A stretch of DNA of 57,736 nucleotides. Origin: an archaeon (GTDB taxonomy: Archaea; Asgardarchaeota; Thorarchaeia; Thorarchaeales; Thorarchaeaceae). The first letter of the stretch is position 1. Every line of letters starts with the position of its first letter. The translations under genes and the position numbers were made by a program. Below are positions 6,437-53,343 of the stretch, piece after piece. Under the pieces are notes generated by a model. That model worked only from the letters and a program-made list of their open reading frames with translations. It was not told the origin of the DNA and searched no databases. Location of the stretch: positions 1 to 57,736 of the forward strand of contig JAJRWI010000062.1 of the NCBI GenBank assembly GCA_024276825.1, written 5' to 3'.

Positions 6437-6597
6437 CTCTAGATTGCATCACGGTGATATTCCAATGCGGCTTGTCAAGGCGCCTAAGAAGCTAGTGGAA
6501 TGCCTTGATCACTTGGTGAGCATTCATTGCAATATTCCATTTGACCGCAAAAGGGAACTCATCATAAACAGAGAGAGGAAAAGCAGGAGGAAAAAGA

Positions 6598-6738
6598 ATG
6601 AAACTGGTAACACTTCATGTTCCTGAACAGTATGTAGAAGGACTTGAGAAGCTTGTGGAGAGCAAGTTGTATCCCAATAGATCAGAAGCTATAAGAATAG
6701 CAATCAGGGATCTCTTGAAGCGAGAGTTGTGGGGCTAA
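6598..6738 (+). CDS. Ribbon-helix-helix transcription factor, CdrS/aCcr1-like (46 aa; below ORF-track cutoff)
   Basis: Manual translation MKLVTLHVPEQYVEGLEKLVESKLYPNRSEAIRIAIRDLLKRELWG; GGAGG Shine-Dalgarno upstream; PNRSEAIR is the CopG/CdrS-type RHH motif. Confidence 0.88.
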   Translation: MKLVTLHVPEQYVEGLEKLVESKLYPNRSEAIRIAIRDLLKRELWG

Positions 6739-6812
6739 TTCGCGACTCTCGGCTCTTTTTCGAGCCAGATTCGTTAAAGAAATGTTGATATGCTATTTCA
6801 TAATAGCGTATA

Positions 6813-7853
6813 ATGCGATTTGCCATCACCCCGCCCAAACCGCTTCAGGATCGTGCTTCAATCGTGGGACCGAAGGTATTGACTAAAGAAACAGGGGCTC
6901 AAGTAATAAATGAACCAAGTACAACCCGGTTCCATATAATAAAGGGCTGTCCTTGCTATAAGGAGTTTGAAAATGAGAAAATCTGTATTAATAATGACAA
7001 TCTTATCTCAATCAGTCCAATAATGATAGACCCCACACTGTTCTCACAAATATTATCACTTGAGGACCTGAACGAGTACAAGAGTGATAGGCAGAGTATG
7101 TGCTATCTCACAATAGCACTAGATCGGGAAGAGAATGTAGTCTATTGTATTTGCAAAAACGAATTAATAATAATCAATCAAAGACATGTGAAAGCATCGG
7201 ACCTTGGTTCTGCGCTCAAATTCCTCGAACTCACCGGAGAAACCATGGATAATGCATTTTGTTCCACATGCATATACAAATACATAATTACAATGGGTGA
7301 TGTGTTTGAGGACATTATTTCAACAGATGAGCGTGAGAGAATAACTGTGGGATATATCAAGAATATTGCCAAAGAGACGCTCAGAACTATTGAGATCGAA
7401 GAGATTGATTTTAACGATTTGGAAGCAATGAGAGCACTAATTCAAAGAACTGTTCAGGCGATTGCACAACAAGTATTCGAATATGACATGTTAATTTCAA
7501 TTCATGAGAACAGTCTAGACCAGAGAATTGTGAATATGATAGATAAGTTGAAACAACTGTGCAAACTTAATGCATTGATGATGTTTCAAATCGAGTCAAT
7601 TATTGAACAAGCAGATCGGCAGGTGACCTATCGGCAGGTACAATATATGACTGAAGTAGCGAAAATGATTGCAATGATTAGTGAAGAGTCTGAATCAATG
7701 ATGGCAGAGTTTCAAGACAATGAAGAGTTTCTTATGGTGATGGACAAGATTGGAAACACATGCCTAAAAAGCCCAATCCAGAATGAGAAGAAATATACTG
7801 GCCTAATGAGGGTCTTGTCCAAGATTGGATTGTCATTGGTGTGCAATAAATAG
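6813..7853 (+). CDS. Hypothetical protein with Cys-rich N-terminal domain, paralog of the next gene
   Basis: 346-aa ORF; GCPC..C..CY..YC..CxxC shared with 7935-8918; start uncertain. Confidence 0.75.
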   Translation: MRFAITPPKPLQDRASIVGPKVLTKETGAQVINEPSTTRFHIIKGCPCYKEFENEKICINNDNLISISPIMIDPTLFSQILSLEDLNEYKSDRQSMCYLTIALDREENVVYCICKNELIIINQRHVKASDLGSALKFLELTGETMDNAFCSTCIYKYIITMGDVFEDIISTDERERITVGYIKNIAKETLRTIEIEEIDFNDLEAMRALIQRTVQAIAQQVFEYDMLISIHENSLDQRIVNMIDKLKQLCKLNALMMFQIESIIEQADRQVTYRQVQYMTEVAKMIAMISEESESMMAEFQDNEEFLMVMDKIGNTCLKSPIQNEKKYTGLMRVLSKIGLSLVCNK

Positions 7854-39645: not shown

Positions 39646-40740
39646 TCAAAGCTCTATTTCATTCATATCAATTCCAAATTTCGGAAATATAAGCTGTTTG
39701 ACTTCGAGCACGTTTTCTCGAACGATAGCCCAAATGTCATCATCATCATCGAATGGCGGTTGTTGAGATGGAGGAATGTAATCATGACCAGTGAGAATTG
39801 ACATGACAACGCCAACACCCCAACATAATGCATCTGGATGATAGCCTCCGCCTGAGAGCACGCACAGCTGTCCATTACTGTATCGGTGAGATGCATTATG
39901 AATGAATTCTGCAACATATGCAATCATGTCAGTTGTGAGGTTCAGGTGTGCAAGACGGTCCATATAATGAGCATCATAACCAGGCAAGAAGAGAATGAAT
40001 TCAGGCTGAAACTTTTCAATTAGTGGGGGCACGAGTTCATCGAAGGCGTACTTGTATACATTGTTTCCTGAGTCCATTGGAAAATGCATGTTAATATTAT
40101 ATCCAAGCCCTTCGCCAAGACCAATATCTTTGATATGTCCATCATGTGGATACAACCACTCTGGGTCTTCATGAAATGAGATGATCATGACATCAGGGTC
40201 AGACATGAAGTATCGTTGTGTTCCATTTCCATGATGCACATCAAAGTCGGCTATCATTATTCTCTGAATACCATTGCCTCGCAAATACTGAACAGAAGCA
40301 GCAAGGTCATTGAACACACAGAAACCACCGCCGCCATCATAATGGGCATGATGGAATCCGCCTGTGGGCGAGAGGACATGTTCAATTTCACCACGAAGAA
40401 TTGCTCTGATTCCTGAAATTGTCCCGCCTGTAGAGATGCGTGCAGTGTCATAAATACCCTTGAACCCGGGCGTATCAATAGATATCTCACCCTCACCAGT
40501 TTCGGACATCTTCTTCACTCTAGATATGTAGTCCTTTGAGTGTATTTTGGCCAAGAGTTCAAGGGGCAGAGGCTTTGGTTCAACTATTCTGACATTTGGT
40601 TGTGATAGAAAGCCAGCTTCTCTCAGAAAGTCATGAATCATCTGGAATCTACCAACTCTTATTGGGTGCAATCGGCCGAAGTCGAATCGTTCAAGCAATG
40701 GACTCCAAATGAAGCCAGTCTTACAGTGATCATTAGTCAT
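39646..40740 (-). CDS. Zn-dependent histone deacetylase / AcuC family protein
   Basis: HP..R, GGFHHA, GFCVFND, DFDVHHGNGT, GYDAH, GGGY. Confidence 0.93.
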   Translation of the reverse strand: MTNDHCKTGFIWSPLLERFDFGRLHPIRVGRFQMIHDFLREAGFLSQPNVRIVEPKPLPLELLAKIHSKDYISRVKKMSETGEGEISIDTPGFKGIYDTARISTGGTISGIRAILRGEIEHVLSPTGGFHHAHYDGGGGFCVFNDLAASVQYLRGNGIQRIMIADFDVHHGNGTQRYFMSDPDVMIISFHEDPEWLYPHDGHIKDIGLGEGLGYNINMHFPMDSGNNVYKYAFDELVPPLIEKFQPEFILFLPGYDAHYMDRLAHLNLTTDMIAYVAEFIHNASHRYSNGQLCVLSGGGYHPDALCWGVGVVMSILTGHDYIPPSQQPPFDDDDDIWAIVRENVLEVKQLIFPKFGIDMNEIEL

Positions 40741-40806: not shown

Positions 40807-42240
40807 TTGCGGATACACCCCGTTGCAAAGATCTCAACGCCGGCCAATGTGTATTCTGTTTATGTTCGTCAACGGAAGGATGCAAGGTCGCAGATCTTTT
40901 CGCTCGATTATAGTGATAGAATGAGAATCTATGATGCTCGTGGCACTCTCAGGTCCACAAGAAAGTGGAGCAGTGAGGTCAGATGCATAGCAGTAGCTGA
41001 TATTGAGGGCGAGGGCAAGGATGCGGTTGTGGGAGGAGTTGGTAAGAAGGTCCTTGTTGTAGACCATCGGGGAAGGCCAATCTGGAACATTACTCTTGAG
41101 AGTTCTGTTGTTGCATGCGATGCCAGAGACATTGATGGCGATGGTGCAGCTGAAGTCGTTGTTGCACTTCATAACAGAAGAGTGATTCTCTGGAATGACG
41201 ATAAGAATGCCCTGTTCAGTAAGACTATGGAACGACCCATAACTGATGTCTGGCTAGAGGACATCACAAATGATACAGAATTGGAAGTTGTCATTGCTGA
41301 TAAGAAAGGACATGTCACAATACTCACTGCAGCTGGCTATCAGATTAAGGAGTTGCGACTCGGTGATTCAATAACAGCATTCGCGGTGCTGATTTTTGGT
41401 GAAAGAAGGCTCTTTGTCACTGGGAATCATAGCAAGACCCTGAAGATTTGGGACATTGATGGGAATCAGATCACTCAGATAGAAGTAGGCGCACCGCCGA
41501 AAGCAATGGCGACTGGTATTCCCGATGATATTTCAGACATCGCTTACTTGGTTGTCAGTACAAAAGATAAGAAACTGAGCTTCTGGGAGATTCAAGAAAC
41601 GGGAGAGGTTTCGCAGACAGAGTCAATCATTCTTCAACAGATTGCTTCTACAAAAGACACAATCTATCGTAGGGCTATCAAGTGTGGAAACTGTGGTGCT
41701 CCGGTTTCACCCGAGTCAGAAGTCTGTGAGTCTTGTGGTGCTCATCTTGAAATCATGGCAGAATATGTGATTGAAGAATTCATACAAGAGAGCATTGACT
41801 CTATCACTTCTAAGCACCCTAGAATCAAGTTGAGAGACCTTGATAGAATTCTACGTAGAACTCTGCCCCGACCTGCAGCATACAACCTGAGACGTTCTTT
41901 GCAGGCAATGATCCAGAGCGGTACAATAGAGGGACATATTGAGGGAAACATGTTCATTCGTAAGAAGATTGCAAGGCGGGTGAAAGCATCAAGCATGAGC
42001 ACCATCAAAAGAGCGCTCAAAGTTGTGCAAGATATTCTTCAGGAAAACAACACCCTTGATGTTGAGATGGTAGAAAAAGAAACAGGAATCGACAGGAGCA
42101 TTTTACGAAGGACGATTCTAATACTTCTAGGAGAGGGTGAGATCAATGGAACTTTCTCCGATGAAACATTCACATTGGATTCCAATCAGGATGCAACTGA
42201 GTTCTTAGAAAAACTGAAGGCAGAACTTGTTCAGGCATGA
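40807..42240 (+). CDS. FG-GAP/WD40 beta-propeller plus zinc ribbon plus two winged-helix (PCI-like) domains
   Basis: DIEGEG, DIDGDG and DITND repeats, LKIWD, LSFWE; CGNC..CESC; two GxIxG-type wing motifs. Confidence 0.7.
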   Translation: MRIHPVAKISTPANVYSVYVRQRKDARSQIFSLDYSDRMRIYDARGTLRSTRKWSSEVRCIAVADIEGEGKDAVVGGVGKKVLVVDHRGRPIWNITLESSVVACDARDIDGDGAAEVVVALHNRRVILWNDDKNALFSKTMERPITDVWLEDITNDTELEVVIADKKGHVTILTAAGYQIKELRLGDSITAFAVLIFGERRLFVTGNHSKTLKIWDIDGNQITQIEVGAPPKAMATGIPDDISDIAYLVVSTKDKKLSFWEIQETGEVSQTESIILQQIASTKDTIYRRAIKCGNCGAPVSPESEVCESCGAHLEIMAEYVIEEFIQESIDSITSKHPRIKLRDLDRILRRTLPRPAAYNLRRSLQAMIQSGTIEGHIEGNMFIRKKIARRVKASSMSTIKRALKVVQDILQENNTLDVEMVEKETGIDRSILRRTILILLGEGEINGTFSDETFTLDSNQDATEFLEKLKAELVQA

Positions 42241-42308
42241 ATTGTTCGAATCCAAAATATTACATGGAAACGAAGTGAGTTTGATAATGCAAGAAGGAGG
42301 AAAATTGC

Positions 42309-45158
42309 GTGGACATTAGCAAGAGGATAATAATCATTTTTGTAACGGTTTCTTTAATTCCCATTTTAGTAATATCAGCAATCTCAGGATACACTATCTT
42401 TGGTGTGTCGCAAGAGAATGCCAACGACTCATCTCAGGCACTTCAAGCAGAAGAGCTTGCAAACCTGCAGAGGATTTCATCTGATACTGCTTTGTTCATT
42501 GATGAACGAATGCAACAGTATTTTGATGGAGTCTATATGATGGAACATTATGCAGAAGATCTGTTCAATGATAGAATCAATGCAACACCAAGATATTCCT
42601 ATTTTTGGGACCCCGTGCTTGAAGCAGGGAGGGGGCACCCAGTACCTGGCCTTACATCAGACTATTATGATATCTACGAGTCTACGCAGATCTCCTTTGA
42701 TGTGAGTTGCTATTACATGCCCCGCAGTTATTATCAGACACCAGGAGACCCATTTGATTGGAGTCCTAGTACACAGTACTTTATCGAGAAGTCAAGTAAT
42801 ATGGATAATGTGTTCAAGGCTCTTCATCAGATGAGCTCAGACTATATCTGGCTTTACATGGGGTTTGATGATCAGTATTGTGACAGCCACTTGTTTCGGA
42901 ACTATCCCTATGACAATCTAGAGTACTTCCTTAACTGGTATGGACCCGATGATGACTATGACCCACTTCGTGAAGACTGGTACAACAATGCTGCCAGTTT
43001 TACAAACGACTCAATAGCATTTACAAAACCTTATGGAGACCCATCTACAGGACTTGTCATATCAATGGGCAGACCTGTAAGGTTTGATAACGGCTCTCTA
43101 TTTGGAGTAGTTTCTGCGGATGTCACAATTGACACTCTTGTTTCCAGTGTGACAAACATCCAAGTTCTAGAGAGTGGCTATGCGTTCCTTCTCACTGATG
43201 ATGGTGATGTAATTACACATCCTGATTATGCAGAAGAAGGTCAGACAATATATGATCTTGAGTTTGGATCTTCAACAAGTCAGGAAGCCACTCAGTTTCA
43301 TCAGGTCATGACTAGCATTCTGAATTCGGCTTCAGGGCTTACAGAGTATTACAAGAACGGAAAGAAATGGTATCTTGCATTTACCAAGTCTTCCGTGACT
43401 GGCTTTGTACTTGCAATCGTTGTTCCCGCCAATGAGGTGATTCAACCCGCCCTGGATATTCTGAGCCTTGTGCAGAATAATACAATGACTATGACTATCA
43501 TACTCATTGGAGTTCTTGCACTGGTGGCAATCGTGGTGACCAAGGCATCATATAGCAAGGCAGAATCTGTTGTTAGACCCATTAAGGACATGACTACGCT
43601 TGTCAGGAAAATGGCCAAGCAGGACTTCACTCGAAGTGTGTATACTTCAGGTGCCATGTACGAGGAGGTGGGCACTACAGTAGATGCCCTGCTGAGCTTC
43701 CAAGAGGCATGCCGATTCGGAAATGAGGCATTTATCAGAGGGGATCTGAACAGGGCACTTTCCAACTATCAAAACCTCCTCGAGATAAGTCAACGTCTGA
43801 ACATTGAGGTCGGCGTCCAGACCATGTATCTGAACATCGGAAATGTGTTCAGACAACGTGGTGATGTTGATGACGCGCTGGATTATTACAACAAGGCGCT
43901 TGAGATTGCCAAGAAAATGCTGGAGAGAGCAAAGGAGCATGGCGCCAAAGAGGATGATGCATTAAACAGGATTGCCTCAGCATATCATAACATCGCACTT
44001 GTGGAGATGGACATGGAGAATTACGAGGAGGCAATTAGGTATCTGGAGGATGCAGAGGCCATCGACAAGACTCTAGGAAATATGAGAGGTCTTGCAAAGA
44101 GGTATGATGCTATGGGTCTTGTGTTCATGCATCAGGGTCGTGACAGTGAGGCACTCAGTAAGTTCAATGAAGCGATTAAGATTGCTACTGAGGAGCAGTA
44201 TGACAGGAGTCTTGCATACATACATTTCCACCTCGGCGAGTTCTACTTCGGACAGGAGAGATGGAGGGATGCTGAAGAGGAGTTCAGTAAGGCAATTGAG
44301 CTTGGGAAGAGGACTGATGAGATGTGGCTCGTAGTGTATGCTATGAACAACCTTGCTGAGGTCTATGATCAACTGGACAAGTCCAGTCATGAGCTGAGAG
44401 TAAAGGCAGAAAGGCTTCGAAGATCAATTCAGTATAGAAAGAGCGTGACATTTGTCATTGACTACTCTGGGAGCATGCGTGCAGAGGGACGAATCAAAGC
44501 TGCAATTGCTGGTGCGAAAGAGATACTCGACACCCAGATTAACCCTCAAGACCAAGTGGGAATCATCGTGTTCAATGCATCCTATAGGGAGTTGCTACCA
44601 TTGACTCCTAAGGGTGACTACGGTGATCCCAATGACAGCCCAATCATTCGCGCACTCGATTCATTGAAATACCCCAACAGTTCAACAGCATTCTACGACG
44701 CACTTGGAAAAGCCCTTGAAGAACTCGATAAGGTTGAATCAAGTGAGCATCGATGGATCATAGCACTCACAGATGGTGAGGACAATAGCTCCAAGAAGTA
44801 TTCACTTGATTGGATAGAGGGAATCTATTCTGAGAAAGATCGAATGAAGAGGAGGAAGAAGGCACGTCCGACAATTGAGGGATTCATCAAGGAGAAGCAT
44901 CTTGATGTGAACTTGATCATAATCGGTGTGGGTGGCGAATTGAGAAAGATTGTGGATCCACCTGTGCGCTCCAAGGAAACAGGCGAATACCTCACAATTG
45001 AGGATCTTCTGAAATCAGTCTGTGATCATGTGCCTCAGGGACAGTATATCTCTGTTGTACACAGCAGGGATGTGAAAGCTGATATACAGAGAGCATTCCA
45101 GCAGGTTGGAGTCATGATGGCCCAGTTGGAGGTGGGTGGATCAACAGTGGACTATTAG
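42309..45158 (+). CDS. Membrane receptor: TM-dCache_1-TM-HAMP-TPR-vWA
   Basis: Two TMs flanking a Cache region (YDPLREDWY, PYGD, GVVSADV, SGYAFLL..G.VITHP); HAMP (VRPIKDM...EEVG); TPRs; vWA with intact MIDAS (DYSGS, TAFYDA, TDGEDN). Confidence 0.85.
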   Translation: MDISKRIIIIFVTVSLIPILVISAISGYTIFGVSQENANDSSQALQAEELANLQRISSDTALFIDERMQQYFDGVYMMEHYAEDLFNDRINATPRYSYFWDPVLEAGRGHPVPGLTSDYYDIYESTQISFDVSCYYMPRSYYQTPGDPFDWSPSTQYFIEKSSNMDNVFKALHQMSSDYIWLYMGFDDQYCDSHLFRNYPYDNLEYFLNWYGPDDDYDPLREDWYNNAASFTNDSIAFTKPYGDPSTGLVISMGRPVRFDNGSLFGVVSADVTIDTLVSSVTNIQVLESGYAFLLTDDGDVITHPDYAEEGQTIYDLEFGSSTSQEATQFHQVMTSILNSASGLTEYYKNGKKWYLAFTKSSVTGFVLAIVVPANEVIQPALDILSLVQNNTMTMTIILIGVLALVAIVVTKASYSKAESVVRPIKDMTTLVRKMAKQDFTRSVYTSGAMYEEVGTTVDALLSFQEACRFGNEAFIRGDLNRALSNYQNLLEISQRLNIEVGVQTMYLNIGNVFRQRGDVDDALDYYNKALEIAKKMLERAKEHGAKEDDALNRIASAYHNIALVEMDMENYEEAIRYLEDAEAIDKTLGNMRGLAKRYDAMGLVFMHQGRDSEALSKFNEAIKIATEEQYDRSLAYIHFHLGEFYFGQERWRDAEEEFSKAIELGKRTDEMWLVVYAMNNLAEVYDQLDKSSHELRVKAERLRRSIQYRKSVTFVIDYSGSMRAEGRIKAAIAGAKEILDTQINPQDQVGIIVFNASYRELLPLTPKGDYGDPNDSPIIRALDSLKYPNSSTAFYDALGKALEELDKVESSEHRWIIALTDGEDNSSKKYSLDWIEGIYSEKDRMKRRKKARPTIEGFIKEKHLDVNLIIIGVGGELRKIVDPPVRSKETGEYLTIEDLLKSVCDHVPQGQYISVVHSRDVKADIQRAFQQVGVMMAQLEVGGSTVDY

Positions 45159-45167
45159 GAGGCGATT

Positions 45168-46619
45168 ATGATGGCGAAGACACCAGAATATACAAAGAAG
45201 AAGGGCAGTTTCCGAAGAAATGTGGTTGCCACATTCTTATTGATATCTGTTGTTTCATTGGGAGTGACTGGCGTCATTTCATTGAGCTTCTTCAATATAA
45301 TAGGGAACTATACGACTAACGAGAGTGCTAATGCGCTTAAGACACAGATTGAGAGAAACATGGAGCAGACAGCTGAACAGAATGCCCTTGTTATAAGACA
45401 GAAACTTGAAACTGCAGAATCGTTTGTGAGAACCATGGCTGAGGAATGCGAGGGTTTGTTTGCTAGTGATTCAACATTTCAACCCAGAGAAGTGTATTAT
45501 GACTACTTCTTCGAAAATCCCCTCGAAGGCCCGGCACCGTCTGACCTTCAGTGGGACAGTTGGAGAAATGTATGGCTCTCTTGGAACTACAGTAGTTGGT
45601 ATGTTCCCGGATCTAATTCCATAAACTACATTGATTACGAGAATCAGTATAGTGACATTTTACACAAGATATCAAATCTTGACTATATGTTCAAGTACAT
45701 TCACAATCAGGCACCCGAGTTCAGATGGCTCTATGTTGCATTCAGAAATGACATCTTCATCAATTATCCTGGAAGCATTGTGGGAGGCAGCAACGCGGAA
45801 CGGAACAATCCCGCTCAGCAGTTCAAAGCATCACAAGAAGAGTGGTACAGTGCAATCCTCGCGGGTCAGGGAGCTATTGTTTATGATGGCCCCTATTATG
45901 ACCCAATTGATGGAGTGCTATTGCTCTCAATTGGAAGAGCATTCTATCATGAGAATGGTACTGCATTGGGAATAATTGCTGGCGACATAACTGTCGATGA
46001 CATAAAATCAAAGGTCTTGGATGTGCGTGTGCTCGAGAGCGGCAATGCATCCCTGATCACAGCAGATGGCAGAATCGTTGCCCATCATGAGGTGAATGAT
46101 GCTGTCTATGCATACTACGAGCCGGATCTGCCGCCACTTTCAGACTTTGAAGCGGTTTCAGCAGCACAGATAGTACAGATAACTTCAGGAAACAGCGGGA
46201 CGATTGAATACACGGATAATGGAGAAGACATGGTCCTTGCCTATGCCCCTGTTGGAGTTGGAGGATACATCTGCATTATCATCGTGCCTGTTGATGAGGC
46301 CCTAGCGGCCATACCACAACTGCAAAGTAGGATAAATGAGACAAACAGTTCAGCGACCCTGTTCATCCTTGCAATAACGGTTGGTGGTATCGTGCTTGCT
46401 GGTGCGGCGGCTGTTGTTGTGACCAATCAGATAGCACGTCCCCTTCAGTACCTGATGGACCTTGCCATGAGAAATGTGGAGGCAATGATCAAGCAGGAGG
46501 ATATGAGTGCCGAGGACTTGCAGGTGGACACTTCATTCACCGAGCAGGATGACGAGATCGGAGAACTGGCACGTGCATTTCAGGGTATGCTAGAAACAAT
46601 CAGAGAAGATGAAGAGTAG
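45168..46619 (+). CDS. Membrane receptor without output domain: TM-dCache_1-TM-HAMP
   Basis: FKASQEEWY, PYYD, GIIAGDI, SGNASLI..GRIVAH; ends right after HAMP (DDEIGELARAFQGML). Confidence 0.85.
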   Translation: MMAKTPEYTKKKGSFRRNVVATFLLISVVSLGVTGVISLSFFNIIGNYTTNESANALKTQIERNMEQTAEQNALVIRQKLETAESFVRTMAEECEGLFASDSTFQPREVYYDYFFENPLEGPAPSDLQWDSWRNVWLSWNYSSWYVPGSNSINYIDYENQYSDILHKISNLDYMFKYIHNQAPEFRWLYVAFRNDIFINYPGSIVGGSNAERNNPAQQFKASQEEWYSAILAGQGAIVYDGPYYDPIDGVLLLSIGRAFYHENGTALGIIAGDITVDDIKSKVLDVRVLESGNASLITADGRIVAHHEVNDAVYAYYEPDLPPLSDFEAVSAAQIVQITSGNSGTIEYTDNGEDMVLAYAPVGVGGYICIIIVPVDEALAAIPQLQSRINETNSSATLFILAITVGGIVLAGAAAVVVTNQIARPLQYLMDLAMRNVEAMIKQEDMSAEDLQVDTSFTEQDDEIGELARAFQGMLETIREDEE

Positions 46620-46628
46620 TGTGTTATA

Positions 46629-48464
46629 ATGAGTGATGAGTGGTCGATAGACAAATCAAAACTAGTGTTCGGAGTTGGCAGGAATGACTTGCGGTTCCTC
46701 GATATAAACGAGGAGGGCGAACTTGTTCTGGTTATTAATGGCCACTCAATCACATTCTCTGAGATAGTTAGACGCATTGAGCAGGAGAATGGCAATCATC
46801 CAAGGTATACATCATCATTCACTCTGAGGATTCCACAACTGATCAGTTCTCAGGTATTAAGACTGAGAGCTGCTTTTGAGAATGCCCGTAATGAATTAGA
46901 ATACAATGGCCGCTTCTTGGCAGTATATCCTGTAAAGGTCAACCAGAGGTATGATTGTGTTGCTGCTGTTATTGCTTCAGACAAAGAGTACGGTCTTGAA
47001 GCTGGTACTAAGGCAGAACTCTTACTGATTAAAAGAATCATCAGCAATGAGAAACATCGTAGAATTGTCTGTAATGGTGCGAAGGACCCAGAGTATCTTA
47101 AAATGATCCATGAGTGCATCAAAGAAGGATACAATATGACAATATCCATCGAGTCCTTGCATGAAGCGAGTCTGATTATTGATAGATTCAATCCTGATGA
47201 AACGGAACTTGTCCTCAGATTAAAGCCCTATATAGAAGTCGAAGGGCATTGGTCCCACTCAATAGGCAGGGACTCAAAGTTTGGACTGAGTGTCCATGAT
47301 CTGTATGATGTTATTGATCTGTTTAAACGGACAGGTTTCATAAACTCGGTAACTACAATTCTGGCGCATGTTGGGTCGCAGATAGAGGATGTCACAAGCT
47401 TCAGACGATTTGGCAGGTACATGACAAGAATCTTCCACCAACTGAGAAGAATGGGGCTTGAAAATCTCAAAATCATCGATTTCGGTGGAGGCCTTGCCAT
47501 TGATTACACTAGCTCCAATCTTCCAGACTTCATGGAAACCTATGCTAGGATGTTGATTGAAGGAATTAAGGAGGGGCTCTCCGAAGTCTCAACAGAGGTT
47601 GAACCTGACATCCTGATTGAGGCTGGTCGGGGGATTACCGCTTTGGGATCTCTCGTGATTGTGAAGGCTCTTGAAGTACGTTCAGTGTTTCCACACAGGG
47701 ACGGACTCTCTGAGGAGTATGACAAGAAGAAGATTGCGTGGACCAAAAGAATTCAAGAAACCACAACACTCAAGGAACTGATTGATGTTTGGAACGAGTT
47801 TCACACAGAGCTCTCCTCGGAAGACCCACTATTGACAAAAACTCTTGATGATGAAGCTCTTGTTGGAGAGTTGGAAAGGGTAACCAGAGAACACATAGCA
47901 AAAGTGCTTGTTGCTAGAGGAGAGAGAGATTTCAAGCAGTTCAAACCAAACAGAGATCTCTGGTATCCCGAGCATATTGTTATTGGAAACTTCAGCGTGT
48001 TCAATTCAATAGGCGACTACGTGCTTGTGGATCAGCACTTCCCAATCATTCCAATTCGGGACCTCAATGTACGCCCTGAAACCACCGTAAGACTCGTTGA
48101 CATCACTTGCGACTCAGATGGTGAGTGCTCGCGTTTCTTCAGACCTGCATATGACATGATACTCTTTACTAGAGATCACAGACCCTTGACCATGCCTACA
48201 TCTCAATTTAATCAAGGCATTCCAGTGGGCATTCTGGGAAATGTGCAGGGTTCTTGTTTTGTCATTGCACTTACAGGTGCATATCAAGATGTGATTGAGA
48301 TGGATCACAACTTACTCGGAGACCTCCCTGATGTGCAAATCACTGTGAATGACAATGGAGAGTGGACATTGCTCTGGTTGGAGGGCGCTGAAACCATGCA
48401 AGAAATTCTCCGGGAAGTCGGCTTTGACATAGAAACAAAATATGATCCTTACATGTCAGACTAG
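46629..48464 (+). CDS. speA: Biosynthetic PLP-dependent arginine decarboxylase (fold III)
   Basis: VYPVKVNQ (PLP Lys), GLEAGTKAEL, CNGAKD, SKFGL, HVGSQI, DFGGGLAIDY, TCDSDG, GAYQD. Confidence 0.85.
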   Translation: MSDEWSIDKSKLVFGVGRNDLRFLDINEEGELVLVINGHSITFSEIVRRIEQENGNHPRYTSSFTLRIPQLISSQVLRLRAAFENARNELEYNGRFLAVYPVKVNQRYDCVAAVIASDKEYGLEAGTKAELLLIKRIISNEKHRRIVCNGAKDPEYLKMIHECIKEGYNMTISIESLHEASLIIDRFNPDETELVLRLKPYIEVEGHWSHSIGRDSKFGLSVHDLYDVIDLFKRTGFINSVTTILAHVGSQIEDVTSFRRFGRYMTRIFHQLRRMGLENLKIIDFGGGLAIDYTSSNLPDFMETYARMLIEGIKEGLSEVSTEVEPDILIEAGRGITALGSLVIVKALEVRSVFPHRDGLSEEYDKKKIAWTKRIQETTTLKELIDVWNEFHTELSSEDPLLTKTLDDEALVGELERVTREHIAKVLVARGERDFKQFKPNRDLWYPEHIVIGNFSVFNSIGDYVLVDQHFPIIPIRDLNVRPETTVRLVDITCDSDGECSRFFRPAYDMILFTRDHRPLTMPTSQFNQGIPVGILGNVQGSCFVIALTGAYQDVIEMDHNLLGDLPDVQITVNDNGEWTLLWLEGAETMQEILREVGFDIETKYDPYMSD

Positions 48465-48519
48465 ATTGCCAGATGATTTAATTCATAAGTCTAACAAAGA
48501 TATTCTCGATGAGCGCAAA

Positions 48520-49329
48520 ATGAACAAATCACTCTCAGAAAAGATCAGCAGAATACATGAGATGTTTGAGGGAAAAAAGGTTCTAGTTGCCTTTAGCGGC
48601 GGTGTCGATAGTTCCACATTGGCAGCAATAGCCAAGACCTGCGCAAAGTCTGTAAATCTGATCTTCGTGGATGGCACTCTTACTCCCGATGAAGATGTCG
48701 TTTATGCAAGGAAAGTGGCAGATGAACTCGGTATCGACTTGACTGTCATAGAAATAGACCAATTAGAAGACCCCAAGTTCAGGGGAAATCCAATAGACCG
48801 CTGCTATTTATGCAAGAAGGGCCTCTCGAAGGAATGGATTCGTTTCGGGAACGAGATTGGGGCAGACATTATTGTTGATGGCACCAATGCCAGCGATCTT
48901 AACGAGTATCGTCCTGGGAAGAGGGCACTGAAAGAGGCAGGAGTCAGATCTCCATTCCTAGAGGTGGGAATGACAAAGAAAGATATCAGAGAGTATGCGA
49001 GATCGATTGATCTGTCCGTGGGCGACAGGCCATCAATGGCATGCTTTGGCTCAAGGTTCCCCTACAATACTGAAATCACACCCGAGAGAGTCAGGAAGAT
49101 AGCCGAGGTCGAGAGAATCGCGAGAGAAGTGTTTGGAATCAGAACCCTCAGAGCAAGGTATCATGGAAACCTAGTCAGACTTGAGATTGGACGCGATGAG
49201 CGACACAAGGCCTTTGATGAGAGTCTTCTGGATCAGTTTGTAGAGCTTGTGAAATCTGTGGGCTTCACATATGTCGCCATAGATGCATTTGGGTACAGAG
49301 CAGGGTCAATGAACGAGGGAACATCTTAG
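48520..49329 (+). CDS. larE: LarE-family ATP-dependent sulfur transferase (TIGR00268-like)
   Basis: AFSGGVDS PP-loop, RCYLCK, DGTNASD, RPG, PSMACFGSRFPY, GYRAGSMN. Confidence 0.88.
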   Translation: MNKSLSEKISRIHEMFEGKKVLVAFSGGVDSSTLAAIAKTCAKSVNLIFVDGTLTPDEDVVYARKVADELGIDLTVIEIDQLEDPKFRGNPIDRCYLCKKGLSKEWIRFGNEIGADIIVDGTNASDLNEYRPGKRALKEAGVRSPFLEVGMTKKDIREYARSIDLSVGDRPSMACFGSRFPYNTEITPERVRKIAEVERIAREVFGIRTLRARYHGNLVRLEIGRDERHKAFDESLLDQFVELVKSVGFTYVAIDAFGYRAGSMNEGTS

Positions 49330-49382
49330 AACTGGGATGCTTGTTTATATCATCTCACCAATCAAAAGAGATGAAGAACGAA

Positions 49383-50564
49383 TCAATTCACGATACATAT
49401 CAGCTCTCTTTGGGGCCTTGATAGAAATTTGCAACCAGCACTTGTCACAAGTACATCTTCTTCAAGGCTCACCTGTCCATAGTTCTTTGTGGTCACATAG
49501 AGTTCCAGTGTGAACACATTTCCAGACTCAACTTTGCCTTTTGGTGAATCACTGTAACGCTCCCATAGCGGACCAAGTAATGTACCACCATCATGAGCAT
49601 GACGACCGAGTTGATGACCGAGGGCATGCTGGTACTCCTCATATCCATGATCTTTCACATAATCTCGCGCTATCGCATCCACCTCAAAGCCTCTCACGCC
49701 GGGCCTGATGAACTCTGATGCCTTCTGAATTGCATCACGCACTGTTTCAAATGCTGCTGATACCTCATCAGGAATGTCAGATTTTGCGCCCATAAAGAGC
49801 ATACGCTGAATGTCCGAGCAGTAGCCATTCCATCTCACACCAAAGTCGAAATGAACAAGATGACCCGCCTTGACCTTATTGTCAGATGGGAGACCATGAC
49901 CAAACTGCTTGTTGGGGCCCGCATCAACAGCGGGATTATGATCAATGTTCCAAGCGGGGCCCACGCCAAGCTCGGTCATTAGTCTGTGAAACTGATCAGC
50001 AATCTCAATCTCAGTCATCCCCACCCTGACAAATGATTGAGCCTTCTTGTAGATCTCCTCTGTTATGTCAATGGCCTTCTGAATCCGCCGGACCTCTTCT
50101 TCGGTCTTTCTTCCTCGAAGATGCTCTATCAAGGTTTCAGCACTGGTCAATCGTTTCAAGTAAGGAGTACCATCCAGCATCTCTCTCAGAATCATGAACA
50201 TGCCATGAGTGAGACCATCAGCGGCCACGTTGTTCTTGCTGTAATTGATTGCGATGCTAATGGGATTGATTCTTTGTATCTCTTCAAGTAGGACAGGTCT
50301 GATGTCCTTTGTGTAAGGTACAACCCTCTGAAAGACACCCTTCGACTCCACTGCATCAGCATCAAAGTTTCCTACAATTGCGATACGTTCCCCGCTCTTT
50401 GTATAGATCAGTGCAGAGTTCCAGACTAAGTCAATTCCCGCAATCAGAGGCAAGACAGGATCTAGTGTCTGGGAGGTCTCTCGCACCCAGACAAGCCACA
50501 TGTCAATGTCAATCTTACTCAGGATTTCACAGGATTGTTTTGACTTTTCAAGTTCCAGAGTCAT
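49383..50564 (-). CDS. Xaa-Pro aminopeptidase (M24 family)
   Basis: RGRKTEEE, DFGV..GYCSDIQR, HALGHQLG..HD, TLE, LEED. Confidence 0.9.
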   Translation of the reverse strand: MTLELEKSKQSCEILSKIDIDMWLVWVRETSQTLDPVLPLIAGIDLVWNSALIYTKSGERIAIVGNFDADAVESKGVFQRVVPYTKDIRPVLLEEIQRINPISIAINYSKNNVAADGLTHGMFMILREMLDGTPYLKRLTSAETLIEHLRGRKTEEEVRRIQKAIDITEEIYKKAQSFVRVGMTEIEIADQFHRLMTELGVGPAWNIDHNPAVDAGPNKQFGHGLPSDNKVKAGHLVHFDFGVRWNGYCSDIQRMLFMGAKSDIPDEVSAAFETVRDAIQKASEFIRPGVRGFEVDAIARDYVKDHGYEEYQHALGHQLGRHAHDGGTLLGPLWERYSDSPKGKVESGNVFTLELYVTTKNYGQVSLEEDVLVTSAGCKFLSRPQRELICIVN

Positions 50565-50642
50565 GGCAATCATCACAATTAATTGAACAACACATGACAT
50601 TGAAACAATCATCTATAAGAGATATTTGAAAGGACACAACGC

Positions 50643-51044
50643 ATGGGAGAAGGCATATTCACTCTGAACCTTCGTGATATTCAACCGAGTCAGCTCTATA
50701 TTAGCAGTTCAAAACTTGCCAAGGTACTTGAACTATTCAAGAGAGGAAGACTTGATGATGTCGAGCCTGTGCCTGTCAAGGTTCTAGATGGAGAGTATGT
50801 GTCTACTGATGGTCATACCAGAATGATGGCTTGGTTTTTAAATGGATATTCTGAGATTCCTGTTGTCTGGGAGAATGAAGAGCTCTCTTGGGATGCTTAC
50901 AGAACTTGTGTGAGATGGTGCAAGGAAGAAGGAATCACATGGATTGGTGATCTAGAAGACAGGATTGTTAGCGATAGTGGATATCAGAGGCTTTGGTATG
51001 ATAGATGTGACACACTCCATAAAGAACTAGAACTAGAAGAGTGA
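50643..51044 (+). CDS. ParB/Srx-like N-terminal domain protein
   Basis: LRDIQPSQLYIS, PVPVKVLDGEYVSTDGHTR. Confidence 0.65.
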   Translation: MGEGIFTLNLRDIQPSQLYISSSKLAKVLELFKRGRLDDVEPVPVKVLDGEYVSTDGHTRMMAWFLNGYSEIPVVWENEELSWDAYRTCVRWCKEEGITWIGDLEDRIVSDSGYQRLWYDRCDTLHKELELEE

Positions 51045-51101
51045 TTCAATCCATATTTACTGATTTTTTTTCAGACCACTAAGGTTAAATATGTATGACA
51101 C

Positions 51102-51129
51102 TTAACAATAGTTAGTTAACAATAGTTAG
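51102..51129. repeat. Perfect 14-bp tandem repeat (TTAACAATAGTTAG x2), candidate operator
   Basis: Lies between a TATA-like TTAAATAT (~51085) and the tusA start; each unit contains TAAC-N4-GTTA. Confidence 0.7.
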
Positions 51130-51130
51130 T

Positions 51131-51382
51131 GTGATGAAGATGACCGAAGAAGCACCTGTGAAGAGCATAGACTGCACAGGACTGTATTGTCCTCAGCCAA
51201 TATTCGAGGTCAAGAAGGCGATAAACACAGTAGAGATTGGCGAAGTACTGGAGATGTTCGCCGACGATCCAGGTGCTGAAGAGGACATGAAGAGATTTGC
51301 TAAACGAATGGGACATGAGTTGCTCTTGGTTGAACATCAGGAATACGGTGTGATCAGGTTTCTCTTTCGAAGGTTGAAATAG
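51131..51382 (+). CDS. tusA: Sulfur carrier, TusA/SirA family
   Basis: IDCTGLYCPQP, ADDPGAEED. Confidence 0.9.
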   Translation: MMKMTEEAPVKSIDCTGLYCPQPIFEVKKAINTVEIGEVLEMFADDPGAEEDMKRFAKRMGHELLLVEHQEYGVIRFLFRRLK

Positions 51383-51393
51383 AGAGGATTAAG

Positions 51394-52560
51394 ATGTCAA
51401 ACACAGTCTATCTGGACTATCACACAGCAAAGCCTGTAGACCCACGAGTATTGGACGAGATGATGCCGTGGTTCACTGAGAGGTTTGCGAACCCATCTTC
51501 GTTGCACAGGGATGGTGACCTCGCTACTGAAGCTCTTGAGGCAAGTAGAGAGAAAGTTGCACAATTCGTCAATGCGGACAATGATGAGATAATCTTCACA
51601 TCAGGAGCCACCGAGTCCATCAATCTTGCGATTATTGGCTACATGATGAAGAACAGGAAGAGAGGAAACCACCTGATAATTTCAGAAGTGGAGCACATCT
51701 CAATTCACAACATTGCGAAGTATCTTGAGAGGCTTGGATTCAATGTTTCAAAGGTTCCAGTGGATCAGTACGGACGTGTGAAACTCTCAAAGTTAGAGAG
51801 GCGAGTCACGGACAAGACAATTCTCATTTCAATCCAATATGCAAACAATGAGATAGGCACTGTTCAGAATATCCAAGAGATTGGAGAATTTGCAAACGAG
51901 AGGGGCATTGCATTTCACACAGATGCGGTTGCTGCAGAAGGCCTGGTCCCAATCAATGTAGAGAGGGACAATATCAACCTGATGTCAATATCATCCAACG
52001 ACATCTATGGACCCCGAGGCGTTGGGGCACTTGTGATGAGAAAGAGGTATCGTGTGAATCCAGTGATGATTGGCGGAGGTCAGGAGCGAGGACTGCGTTC
52101 AGGCTCAGAGGACATTCCGGGAATAGTGGGGATGGCAAAAGCTGCAGAAATAATGCAGAGCGAGATGGATGATGAGGTCAGGAGATTCAAAGCCTGGCGG
52201 GACAGACTGATTAGAGAAGTACTGAGCATAATTCCAGACGCCCATTTGAATGGCCATCCAACCGACAGATTGGCGAGCAATGCACACTTCCGATTTGAGG
52301 GGGTGGAGGGCGAGGCCCTGCTATTGTCATTCAAGGACAAGGGGATCTCTGTATCGACAGGTTCTGCATGCTCCTCAAAGACACTTGAACCATCGCATAC
52401 ACTGATATCAACAGGATTGTTGCACGAGGAGGCACATGACTCTCTGCAACTGACAATTGGCAGGTTCACAAAGAATGAGGACATAGATACAGTCCTTAAA
52501 GCACTGCCTGAGATTGTTGGAAAACTGCGGGAGATGTCCCCCATCTACAAAGGGAGATAA
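51394..52560 (+). CDS. iscS: IscS-like cysteine desulfurase homolog (PLP Lys replaced by Asp)
   Basis: ANPSSLH, FTSGATES, NNEIGT, GGGQERGLRSG, STGSACSS; SSNDIYGP in place of SxHKxYGP. Confidence 0.88.
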   Translation: MSNTVYLDYHTAKPVDPRVLDEMMPWFTERFANPSSLHRDGDLATEALEASREKVAQFVNADNDEIIFTSGATESINLAIIGYMMKNRKRGNHLIISEVEHISIHNIAKYLERLGFNVSKVPVDQYGRVKLSKLERRVTDKTILISIQYANNEIGTVQNIQEIGEFANERGIAFHTDAVAAEGLVPINVERDNINLMSISSNDIYGPRGVGALVMRKRYRVNPVMIGGGQERGLRSGSEDIPGIVGMAKAAEIMQSEMDDEVRRFKAWRDRLIREVLSIIPDAHLNGHPTDRLASNAHFRFEGVEGEALLLSFKDKGISVSTGSACSSKTLEPSHTLISTGLLHEEAHDSLQLTIGRFTKNEDIDTVLKALPEIVGKLREMSPIYKGR

Positions 52561-52563
52561 ATT

Positions 52564-53343
52564 ATGATGAAATCAACAAGTTATTCAGAGAAAGTTTTGG
52601 ATCACTTCAGAAATCCGCGCAATGTCGGAGTTCTTGAGGGTGACGATGTAGCAGTTGGAAGAGTTGGAAATCCCACTTGCGGAGACCTCATGGAGGTGTT
52701 CATCCGTGTAGATGGTGACAGGATCGTGGATGCCAAGTTCAGAACATTTGGCTGCGGTTCTGCAATTGCAACAAGCAGCATGACAACCGAGCTTGTGAAA
52801 GGAATGACTCTGGAGGAGGCATTGCAGGTCACAAGATCGGATGTTGCTGACGCCTTAGATGGACTGCCACCAATTAAGATGCATTGCAGTAATTTAGCTG
52901 CTGATGCACTTCATGAGGCCATAAGGAATTACAGATCACGAGGAATCAAAGTCAACGATAGCGAGGGAGGCGAGGCCTTTGACAAGAGCTGTCTGATCGG
53001 ACTTGATGAGTATTTAGACAGAGGGCTCTACTTGTCATATGACGAAGCTGAGATCTTCGAGGGGCAACGCACCCTTGTGCTTCATACTGGCGATGAGTCT
53101 CTCAGGGCGGCAATCGAACTGACTGGTGTCACTAACCGAGTGATACTCCTCAGTGCTGCAGACCACATTGTCACTACTGAAGAACTTCAGAGAGAACTTG
53201 AGTCTTCAAATGTGAAGATTCTTACAATGTCAAAGCTTCTCGAGATTCGCGGTGATGATGAAGTAGAAAAGGTATTGATACACAACGTTGAGGAAGACGA
53301 GGACTACGAACTCTTTGTAGATGCTGTGCTCATCATTGATTGA
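52564..53343 (+). CDS. iscU: IscU/NifU scaffold fused to a degenerate thioredoxin-reductase NADPH-binding domain
   Basis: DHFRNPRNVG, NPTCGD, FGCGSAIA, LPPIKMHCS; the C-terminal 120 aa follow the TrxB middle-domain pattern. Confidence 0.85.
   Translation: MMKSTSYSEKVLDHFRNPRNVGVLEGDDVAVGRVGNPTCGDLMEVFIRVDGDRIVDAKFRTFGCGSAIATSSMTTELVKGMTLEEALQVTRSDVADALDGLPPIKMHCSNLAADALHEAIRNYRSRGIKVNDSEGGEAFDKSCLIGLDEYLDRGLYLSYDEAEIFEGQRTLVLHTGDESLRAAIELTGVTNRVILLSAADHIVTTEELQRELESSNVKILTMSKLLEIRGDDEVEKVLIHNVEEDEDYELFVDAVLIID

Follow-up and report, generated by a model that had tools for sequence, protein, structure and literature searches.

The closest described relatives of the two membrane receptors reported here, which are encoded next to an arginine decarboxylase gene (speA) in a 57,736-nt stretch of DNA from an Asgard archaeon of the family Thorarchaeaceae (contig JAJRWI010000062.1 of GenBank assembly GCA_024276825.1; this whole stretch is called the window below), are sensors with an extracellular dCache_1 domain. 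In the dCache_1AA amino-acid receptors, such as PctA, PctB, PctC, Mlp24, Mlp37 and Tlp3, the carboxylate of the ligand is held by the residues Y121, R126 and W128 (PctA numbering) and its amino group by Y144 and D173; an R126A substitution in PctA led to a 61-fold lower affinity and D173A abolished binding (Gumerov et al. 2022, PMC8915833). TlpQ and McpU (PDB 6FU4 and 6F9G), chemoreceptors for polyamines, histamine and agmatine, use a Y-x-D...D triad to clamp a primary amine in a strongly acidic pocket, bind agmatine tightly, at 0.15-0.48 µM, and signal through methyl-accepting chemotaxis protein (MCP) domains to chemotaxis (PMC6234866). A third group, dCache_1AM (PctD, PacA, McpX and 3LIB from M. 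mazei), derives from amino-acid sensors by loss of the carboxylate binder, with an aromatic pair and a distal Asp kept, and has been reported in archaea from Halobacteriota only (Cerna-Vargas et al. 2023, PMC10589655). Finally, dCache_1 occurs together with a von Willebrand factor A (vWA) domain and its metal-ion-dependent adhesion site (MIDAS) in the eukaryotic proteins alpha2delta and CACHD1.

Here, we describe a unit of four genes, coding for a protein without transmembrane segments (Q), two paralogous receptors (A and B) and SpeA, in which both receptors keep the residues that clamp an amine and carry no arginine at the site that holds the carboxylate in PctA. We give an even chance to the reading that A and B constitute an outward-facing sensor of agmatine or polyamines that matches SpeA to the external supply. 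For comparison across the phylum, a sample of 301 genomes was used, the families of which are given here as codes (f1, f5 and so on), f1 being the family of the window.

A four-gene unit with two dCache_1 receptors

The genes for Q, A, B and SpeA lie co-oriented on the forward strand at 40807-48464, head to tail, with 68 nt between Q and A and 9 nt each between A and B and between B and speA (Table 1). A sequence-only reading of the window had described the layout A-B-speA with 9-nt gaps and no kinase, which was borne out by the open reading frame (ORF) coordinates and Pfam domains. Its linkage of these three genes is conserved as well, but the unit consists of four genes, not three, with Q as a further conserved member upstream. 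Profile searches of the four genes returned no kinase, cyclase or MCP domain, and in particular no HisKA/HATPase_c or MCP output domain in the receptors or elsewhere in the operon. About 20 histidine kinases are encoded elsewhere in the genome, the nearest one 8 kb from the unit, and MCPsignal had no match anywhere in the genome, which sets the locus apart from the chemotaxis receptors TlpQ and McpU.

By fold and layout, the receptors are of the dCache_1/HAMP type, but they fail the arginine that defines dCache_1AA. The dCache_1 profile (PF02743) matched A with 52.3 bits and B with 76 bits (cut-off 45), in both cases in a domain flanked by two transmembrane segments (TM1 and TM2). Two strong transmembrane segments were predicted for each receptor and none for SpeA or Q; these segments and the basic N terminus of B suggest that the Cache domains of A and B face outward. 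HAMP is a Pfam match in B; in A it is weak in the window copy (E 0.0089 for the excised linker) and clear in a distant orthologue. Structural models of A (residues 1-420; predicted local distance difference test score, pLDDT, 86) and B (pLDDT 79, above 90 over the Cache domain) contain Cache domains that match solved dCache_1 domains at Z 18-22. With the dCache_1AA receptors they share the fold (Z 18-20, root-mean-square deviation about 2.5-3 Å over 220-240 residues, 18-25% identity), the TM-Cache-TM-HAMP layout and the equivalents of W128, Y129, Y144 and D173. They differ in having Glu at the position of R126 (Glu, Asp or Gln in relatives), a generic aromatic residue in place of Y121 in B, and a Cache domain about 100 residues longer, and their output is TPR (tetratricopeptide repeat)-vWA or nothing instead of an MCP domain, kinase or cyclase. 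TlpQ (6FU4) matched with Z 17.4 at 15% identity and was absent from the sequence matches, whereas 3LIB was the best solved sequence match of B (E 4e-17, family profile).

The best and longest alignment of the A Cache model (42411-43463) was to alpha2delta-1 (Z 20-22 over 285-299 residues, vs about 236 for bacterial dCache domains), and CACHD1 was the top sequence match of the A profile, tied with PctA. In alpha2delta, however, the vWA domain is inserted in the Cache domain and extracellular, whereas that of A follows TM2, HAMP and the TPRs and is cytoplasmic. The vWA domain of A has an intact MIDAS, as D718, S720, S722, T793 and D822 are invariant in an alignment of 17 orthologous sequences. 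A profile of B matched the VWA_N region of alpha2delta with B residues 127-233 (E about 1e-7), and an A orthologue from family f24 has a weak Pfam VWA_N match.

Protein Q gave weak PCI/WH matches in its C-terminal part, and a search of its profile against solved structures returned weak WD40 matches only, none of them covering the C-terminal half. No precedent was found for the receptor output, and our literature search found no paper describing the A-B-Q architecture or its link to speA. In public annotation, A appears as "tetratricopeptide repeat protein" or "cache domain-containing protein". Among the matches listed for A (the best 120, all at least 59% identical), the named ones were Asgard, one of them labelled Lokiarchaeota.

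Ligand pockets of the two receptors

The N-terminal pocket motif of A, YDPLREDWY, aligned residue for residue with YDPRSRPWY of PctA and YDPRRRPWY of PctB (HMMER), which places E222 on R126 and R221 one position before it, and makes Y217, W224, Y225, Y242 and D271 the equivalents of Y121, W128, Y129, Y144 and D173. In the motif FKASQEEWY of B, E224 falls on R126 and F219, aromatic but not Tyr, on Y121; the other pocket residues are W226, Y227, Y243 and D273. Thus, the sequence-only reading was right that both receptors have Glu at the Arg126 site and keep the Trp, the Y-x-D and the distal Asp. The substitution extends to the relatives of both proteins. At the R126 site, A has Glu in 107, Gln in 13 and Leu in one of 121 homologues (cluster representatives), and Glu in 35, Gln in four, Trp in one and Tyr in one of 41 species loci; B has Glu in 21, Asp in 19 and Gln in four of 44 species loci. 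Arg or Lys was found in none of these 206 sequences (121 + 41 for A, 44 for B). The amino-group half is fixed: D244 and D271 of A are invariant and Y242 is Tyr in 118 of 121 homologues, while the PY-x-D motif and the distal Asp of B are present in 44/44 species loci.

The same residues can be read against the other two groups. The Y-x-D...D clamp of TlpQ and McpU is present and invariant as PY-G-D...D in A and PY-Y-D...D in B, and the aromatic pair (F188/Y189) and distal Asp (D235) of dCache_1AM have counterparts in the W-Y pairs and in D271 and D273. The alignments to 3LIB begin past the region of dCache_1AM that comprises the upstream insertion with its R103-D133 salt bridge, the cation-pi residue W155, M215 and S217. 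Because the amine clamp is kept and the carboxylate-binding Arg is replaced by Glu, Asp or Gln, we infer that a cationic amine lacking a carboxylate is the most likely ligand, the leading candidates being agmatine and downstream polyamines.

Arg221 of A, considered as a shifted carboxylate binder, was rejected because the position is not conserved, being Arg or Lys in only 4 of 121 homologues; the reservation made in the sequence-only reading about an Arg one residue earlier falls with it.

Table 1. Positions of the four genes of the unit and of receptor domains and pocket motifs within the window.
Feature	Position	Strand	Description
Q	40807..42240	+	477 aa; beta-propeller (FG-GAP/WD-like, DxDGD loops), CxxC...CxxC zinc ribbon, two winged-helix-like units; Pfam propeller, FG-GAP_3, Zn_Ribbon_1
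Receptor A	42309..45158	+	949 aa; TM1, predicted extracellular dCache_1, TM2, HAMP-like linker, about six TPRs, vWA
A pocket, N-terminal motif YDPLREDWY, residues 217-225	42957..42983	+	E222 (42972-42974) at PctA R126 position
A pocket, amino-group half P-Y242-G-D244 and D271	43029..43121	+	
A cytoplasmic TPR array, residues about 470-700	43716..44408	+	TPR_12, TPR_1 and TPR_2 matches
A cytoplasmic vWA	44442..45008	+	VWA_2, 55 bits; MIDAS D718-x-S720-G-S722, T793, D822
Receptor B	45168..46619	+	483 aa; TM1, predicted extracellular dCache_1, TM2, HAMP, then stop
B pocket, N-terminal motif FKASQEEWY, residues 219-227	45822..45848	+	E224 (45837-45839) at PctA R126 position
B pocket, amino-group half P-Y243-Y-D245 and D273	45891..45986	+	
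SpeA-type pyridoxal 5′-phosphate (PLP)-dependent biosynthetic arginine decarboxylase	46629..48464	+	611 aa; Pfam Orn_Arg_deC_N

Linkage to speA across Asgard families and the role of SpeA

Among the 24 family relatives searched first, A and B lay beside speA in 18, and Q adjoined A-B in all 14 family loci where Q could be scored. The order Q-A-B-speA persists at loci with 35-45% protein identity to the window, and in several families adjacency to speA is kept although protein identity is no more than about 30-40%. A scan with one genome per species yielded about 45 Asgard loci, in which A is upstream of B and speA is adjacent wherever the contig continues; the linkage was seen in about 40 species-level loci bearing the names Thor-, Hermod- or Heimdallarchaeota, and close relatives of the window locus are labelled Candidatus Thorarchaeota. 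In the phylum sample, 97 genomes contained B-type genes and 100 contained SpeA, the two being adjacent in the five families f1, f5, f14, f22 and f27. Several lineages have another arrangement, in which speA is transcribed divergently from A-B and Q is convergent after B, yet all four genes are still together. That the genes stay linked after being rearranged favors a functional tie over simple inheritance of an operon. Conservation of the speA linkage, which the sequence-only reading had named as a check, is found across many Asgard genomes and five families.

Wherever contiguity permits, the receptors adjoin speA in each lineage that contains speA; in one f12 genome, speA is not adjacent but shares a contig with A, about 6 kb upstream of it. 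At least 14 sampled genomes, by contrast, retain speA without A or B. One of these (G003) carries a decayed B remnant between speA and the HDAC (histone deacetylase)-family gene (L044 about 6453-7053; G003:C7:15034-15408), 55% identical over residues 342-465 and with TAG and TAA stops; here, the receptor module appears to have been lost recently and speA retained.

The conserved core across Asgard families is A-B-Q. Save for a single f14 locus, Q adjoins A-B in all families examined, including those without speA. In f24 and f9, A-B-Q occur in order with no speA nearby, and SpeA was found in 0/7 f24 and 0/68 f9 genomes. The f24 receptors both carry YDPRxRxWY, the canonical amino-acid motif. In a joint tree of the Cache domains, A and B formed reciprocal clades, within each of which the speA-linked sequences formed one clade (support of 94 and 91 in the Shimodaira-Hasegawa-like approximate likelihood ratio test, SH-aLRT); the f24 and f9 groups fell outside these clades, their branching order not being settled by the tree. 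From this topology it follows that the ancestor of both paralogues had Arg and that each paralogue lost it at least once, a parallel change at one site in two proteins of the speA-adjacent lineage. That the speA-less f24 pairs keep Arg is the pattern predicted if the pockets were retuned for a decarboxylated cationic ligand, as the sequence-only reading had proposed; that part of the proposal also agrees with the Arg loss being conserved in both receptors and with the invariant amino-group half. Given the few events and an exception in f9, which is weighed below, the pattern is a consistent one and not statistical proof.

SpeA aligned nearly end to end with the C. jejuni and V. vulnificus structures (3NZP and 3N2O) and keeps the motifs YPVKVNQ, with the PLP-binding Lys, GGGLAIDY and CDSDGE; full-length alignment and the PLP-Lys and CDSDG motifs are shared with the enzymes of E. 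coli, V. vulnificus and C. jejuni. Unlike these, it stays below the curated NCBIfam cut-offs, with 348 bits against NF003763 "biosynthetic arginine decarboxylase" (cut-off 369; aligned over residues 3-603 of 611) and 331 bits against TIGR01273 (cut-off 624), and it replaces the usual archaeal pyruvoyl enzyme at a fixed place beside a receptor module. The gene is present in a single copy. A pyruvoyl arginine decarboxylase (PvlArgDC, PF01862) was not found in the window genome, which is 98% complete, and in the phylum sample the two enzymes are nearly mutually exclusive by family (PvlArgDC vs SpeA): only SpeA occurs in f1 (0/76 vs 68/76) and f27 (0/11 vs 10/11), only PvlArgDC in f9 (59/68 vs 0/68) and f24 (7/7 vs 0/7), and both in f14 (5/11 vs 6/11) and parts of f5. 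PvlArgDC is present in most other Asgard families. Most genomes of f12 and f22 have neither enzyme and may use a third route. Variants of SpeD that decarboxylate arginine are reported from genomes without SpeA (Li et al., PMC10407285). The window genome contains a single AdoMet_dc gene. It also encodes TiaS, which requires agmatine and modifies tRNA-Ile, an agmatinase-family gene and a weak match to spermidine synthase. With SpeA as the sole arginine decarboxylase detected, these genes make it the housekeeping entry to agmatine and polyamines.

This bears on the claim that the locus is a synthase-plus-receptor layout of autoinducer or paracrine type, put forward in the sequence-only reading, in which SpeA would make agmatine for release and A and B would be its dedicated receptors, in the style of LuxI/LuxR. 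A synthase gene beside outward-facing receptors with pockets that suit its product is what such a circuit would look like, and because some f14 and f5 genomes carry both PvlArgDC and A-B-speA, SpeA could be an extra, dedicated enzyme there. Yet in the family of the window it is the only arginine decarboxylase detected (PvlArgDC 0/76) and its product is needed by TiaS; speA is kept where the receptors have been lost, in at least 14 genomes including the one with the decayed remnant of B; A-B-Q occur without speA in f9 and f24; and the cluster contains no exporter. A dedicated synthase co-inherited with its receptor was thus not what we found, and we consider this circuit quite improbable. As speA is kept without receptors and, wherever contigs permit, the receptors stand beside speA in speA lineages, the receptors look like an accessory to SpeA, rather than SpeA like their dedicated synthase.

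Proposed signalling route and its weight

If A and B are indeed amine sensors serving SpeA, their Cache domains would bind an external cationic amine, probably acting as a pair, and the signal would pass via TM2 and HAMP into the cytoplasmic TPR-vWA arm of A, which would dock the soluble Q. HAMP domains form dimeric four-helix bundles. Since A and B are paralogues co-inherited 1:1 and B ends after its HAMP domain, a heterodimer would be the simplest reading. The most parsimonious purpose would be homeostasis, the activity or expression of SpeA being matched to the amine supply outside the cell, with the SpeA product needed for agmatidine in tRNA-Ile and for polyamines. Candidate routes to SpeA would be transcriptional control by the winged helices of Q or docking of SpeA itself.

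Complex prediction for the cytoplasmic tail of A (residues 465-949) with Q gave a median interaction prediction score from aligned errors (ipSAE) of 0.38 (0.38, 0.35 and 0.53 in the three runs), against 0.00 for the best of three controls, a weak pass; at least 73% of the contacts were shared between runs, and the partner had a pLDDT of at least 80. In the calibration of this score, 58 of 80 solved complexes reached the mark, as did 2 of 110 mismatched pairs, but only 7 of the 80, along with both passing mismatches, reached it with values of 0.60 or less; the fold support for docking of the A tail on Q is weak. In f12, B is not output-less but has a C-terminal extension with a zinc ribbon and HEAT repeats (L141 12110-13860 in G131), with 583 aa up to the contig end in G131; in three genomes, its open frame measures 585-670 aa. 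This tail may be read as a fusion hint of a Q-like element at the cytoplasmic end of the receptor.

The same cytoplasmic parts are open to a structural interpretation, according to which A and B would be a membrane-anchored scaffold of TPR, vWA and propeller, loosely resembling an integrin head, that tethers or assembles cytoplasmic proteins, possibly SpeA, the Cache domains being structural or adhesive. All cytoplasmic parts are protein-docking modules, the MIDAS is intact, and the predicted A-Q contact, weak as it is, would fit. However, the ligand-clamp residues are invariant in both Cache pockets and the HAMP modules are kept, which points to ligand-driven signalling and makes a scaffold very unlikely.

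Several observations weigh against an agmatine or polyamine sensor serving SpeA. The ligand class is predicted from a comparison of pockets, and many dCache_1 domains whose ligands are not amino acids have likewise lost the R126 residue, so that this loss does not name the ligand. Judged by spacing, Glu170 of TlpQ, a second acidic residue that binds the distal nitrogen, is probably not equivalent to the R126 site. Methylamines are the ligands of 3LIB, the best solved match of B, and the dCache_1AM domains assayed by Cerna-Vargas et al. took up small or quaternary amines but did not bind agmatine or putrescine (PMC10589655). In f9, the R126 site is acidic without any speA (0/68) and the A pocket is otherwise degenerate; the correlation between pocket and speA is therefore imperfect, and it rests on very few evolutionary events. 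The sensors face outward, SpeA is a cytoplasmic enzyme, and the cluster contains no exporter or importer gene. Beyond adjacency, nothing that we found ties SpeA to the module physically or by transcription, and the weak fold support for the A tail-Q contact belongs to the same side of the balance.

Some of these points favor receptors for a compound unrelated to the SpeA product, such as methylamines, ethanolamine, another cation or a compound from a host or partner, with the adjacency to speA reflecting shared inheritance or co-regulation. Loss of R126 in itself only removes amino-acid binding, the closest solved relative of B is a methylamine binder, f9 has the acidic pocket without speA, and one historical event could account for the linkage, given the monophyly of the speA-linked clade. 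Against such receptors, the adjacency survives inversions and is still seen in several families with protein identities of only about 30-40%, and in the lineage that gained the speA link, A and B were altered at the same site. We regard an unrelated ligand as rather unlikely. A more far-reaching version of the amine-sensor reading would make A-B-Q a new class of Asgard transmembrane signalling systems without a kinase, in which a heterodimeric dCache sensor of agmatine or polyamines captures Q with its TPR-vWA arm through an integrin-head-like vWA-propeller contact and so gates arginine decarboxylase, the Cache-vWA receptor being related to eukaryotic alpha2delta/CACHD1; taken as a whole, this is improbable.

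Neighbouring genes and meaning of the locus

Downstream of speA, an ORF for a LarE-type sulfur transferase (48442-49329) has a first ATG that overlaps speA by 23 nt; LarE orthologues align from about residue 26 of this ORF. It opens a sulfur/Fe-S trafficking neighbourhood on the forward strand (48442-53343) that further contains an M24 peptidase gene (on the minus strand), TusA, an IscS-like aminotransferase and a NifU-Pyr_redox fusion. The LarE-like gene was rejected as a member of the unit: it trails speA in only about half of the loci, is absent from the rearranged ones and sits with the TusA, IscS and NifU genes, and thus probably belongs to the sulfur/Fe-S neighbourhood. On the other side, divergent from Q and with conserved synteny, the HDAC-family gene (39646-40740, minus strand) is the first of an operon on that strand that includes two radical-SAM genes. 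In two genomes in which Q-A-B are missing (G003 and G006), it is the immediate neighbour of speA. We considered it as a possible acetylpolyamine amidohydrolase that would tie the locus to polyamines and left it out of the unit. Two further loci differ in gene content. In one f14 genome (G039, L040 2505-4463), a homologue of EutA, the ethanolamine ammonia-lyase reactivase, is encoded just past speA, and no Q stands next to A. One f5 genome (G049, L143 4643-9402) has two tandem SpeA paralogues without A or B, the first in an ORF of 874 aa with a long N-terminal extension.

No closer relatives of eukaryotes are known than the Asgard archaea, whose sensing is almost undescribed. The unit offers a testable case, with two receptors of a predicted ligand class, a natural control in the sister receptors that keep the amino-acid motif, and an output built only from protein-docking modules (TPR, vWA/MIDAS, propeller and winged helix) with no kinase. 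The likeness of the Cache domain to that of alpha2delta and the presence of a vWA domain in the same Asgard protein merit an evolutionary comparison with alpha2delta and CACHD1. If A and B do sense an amine for SpeA, the framework for predicting Cache ligands would extend to a new pocket variant, a membrane sensor would be coupled to a core metabolic enzyme in a new way, and there would be a first handle on polyamine and agmatine homeostasis in Asgard archaea.

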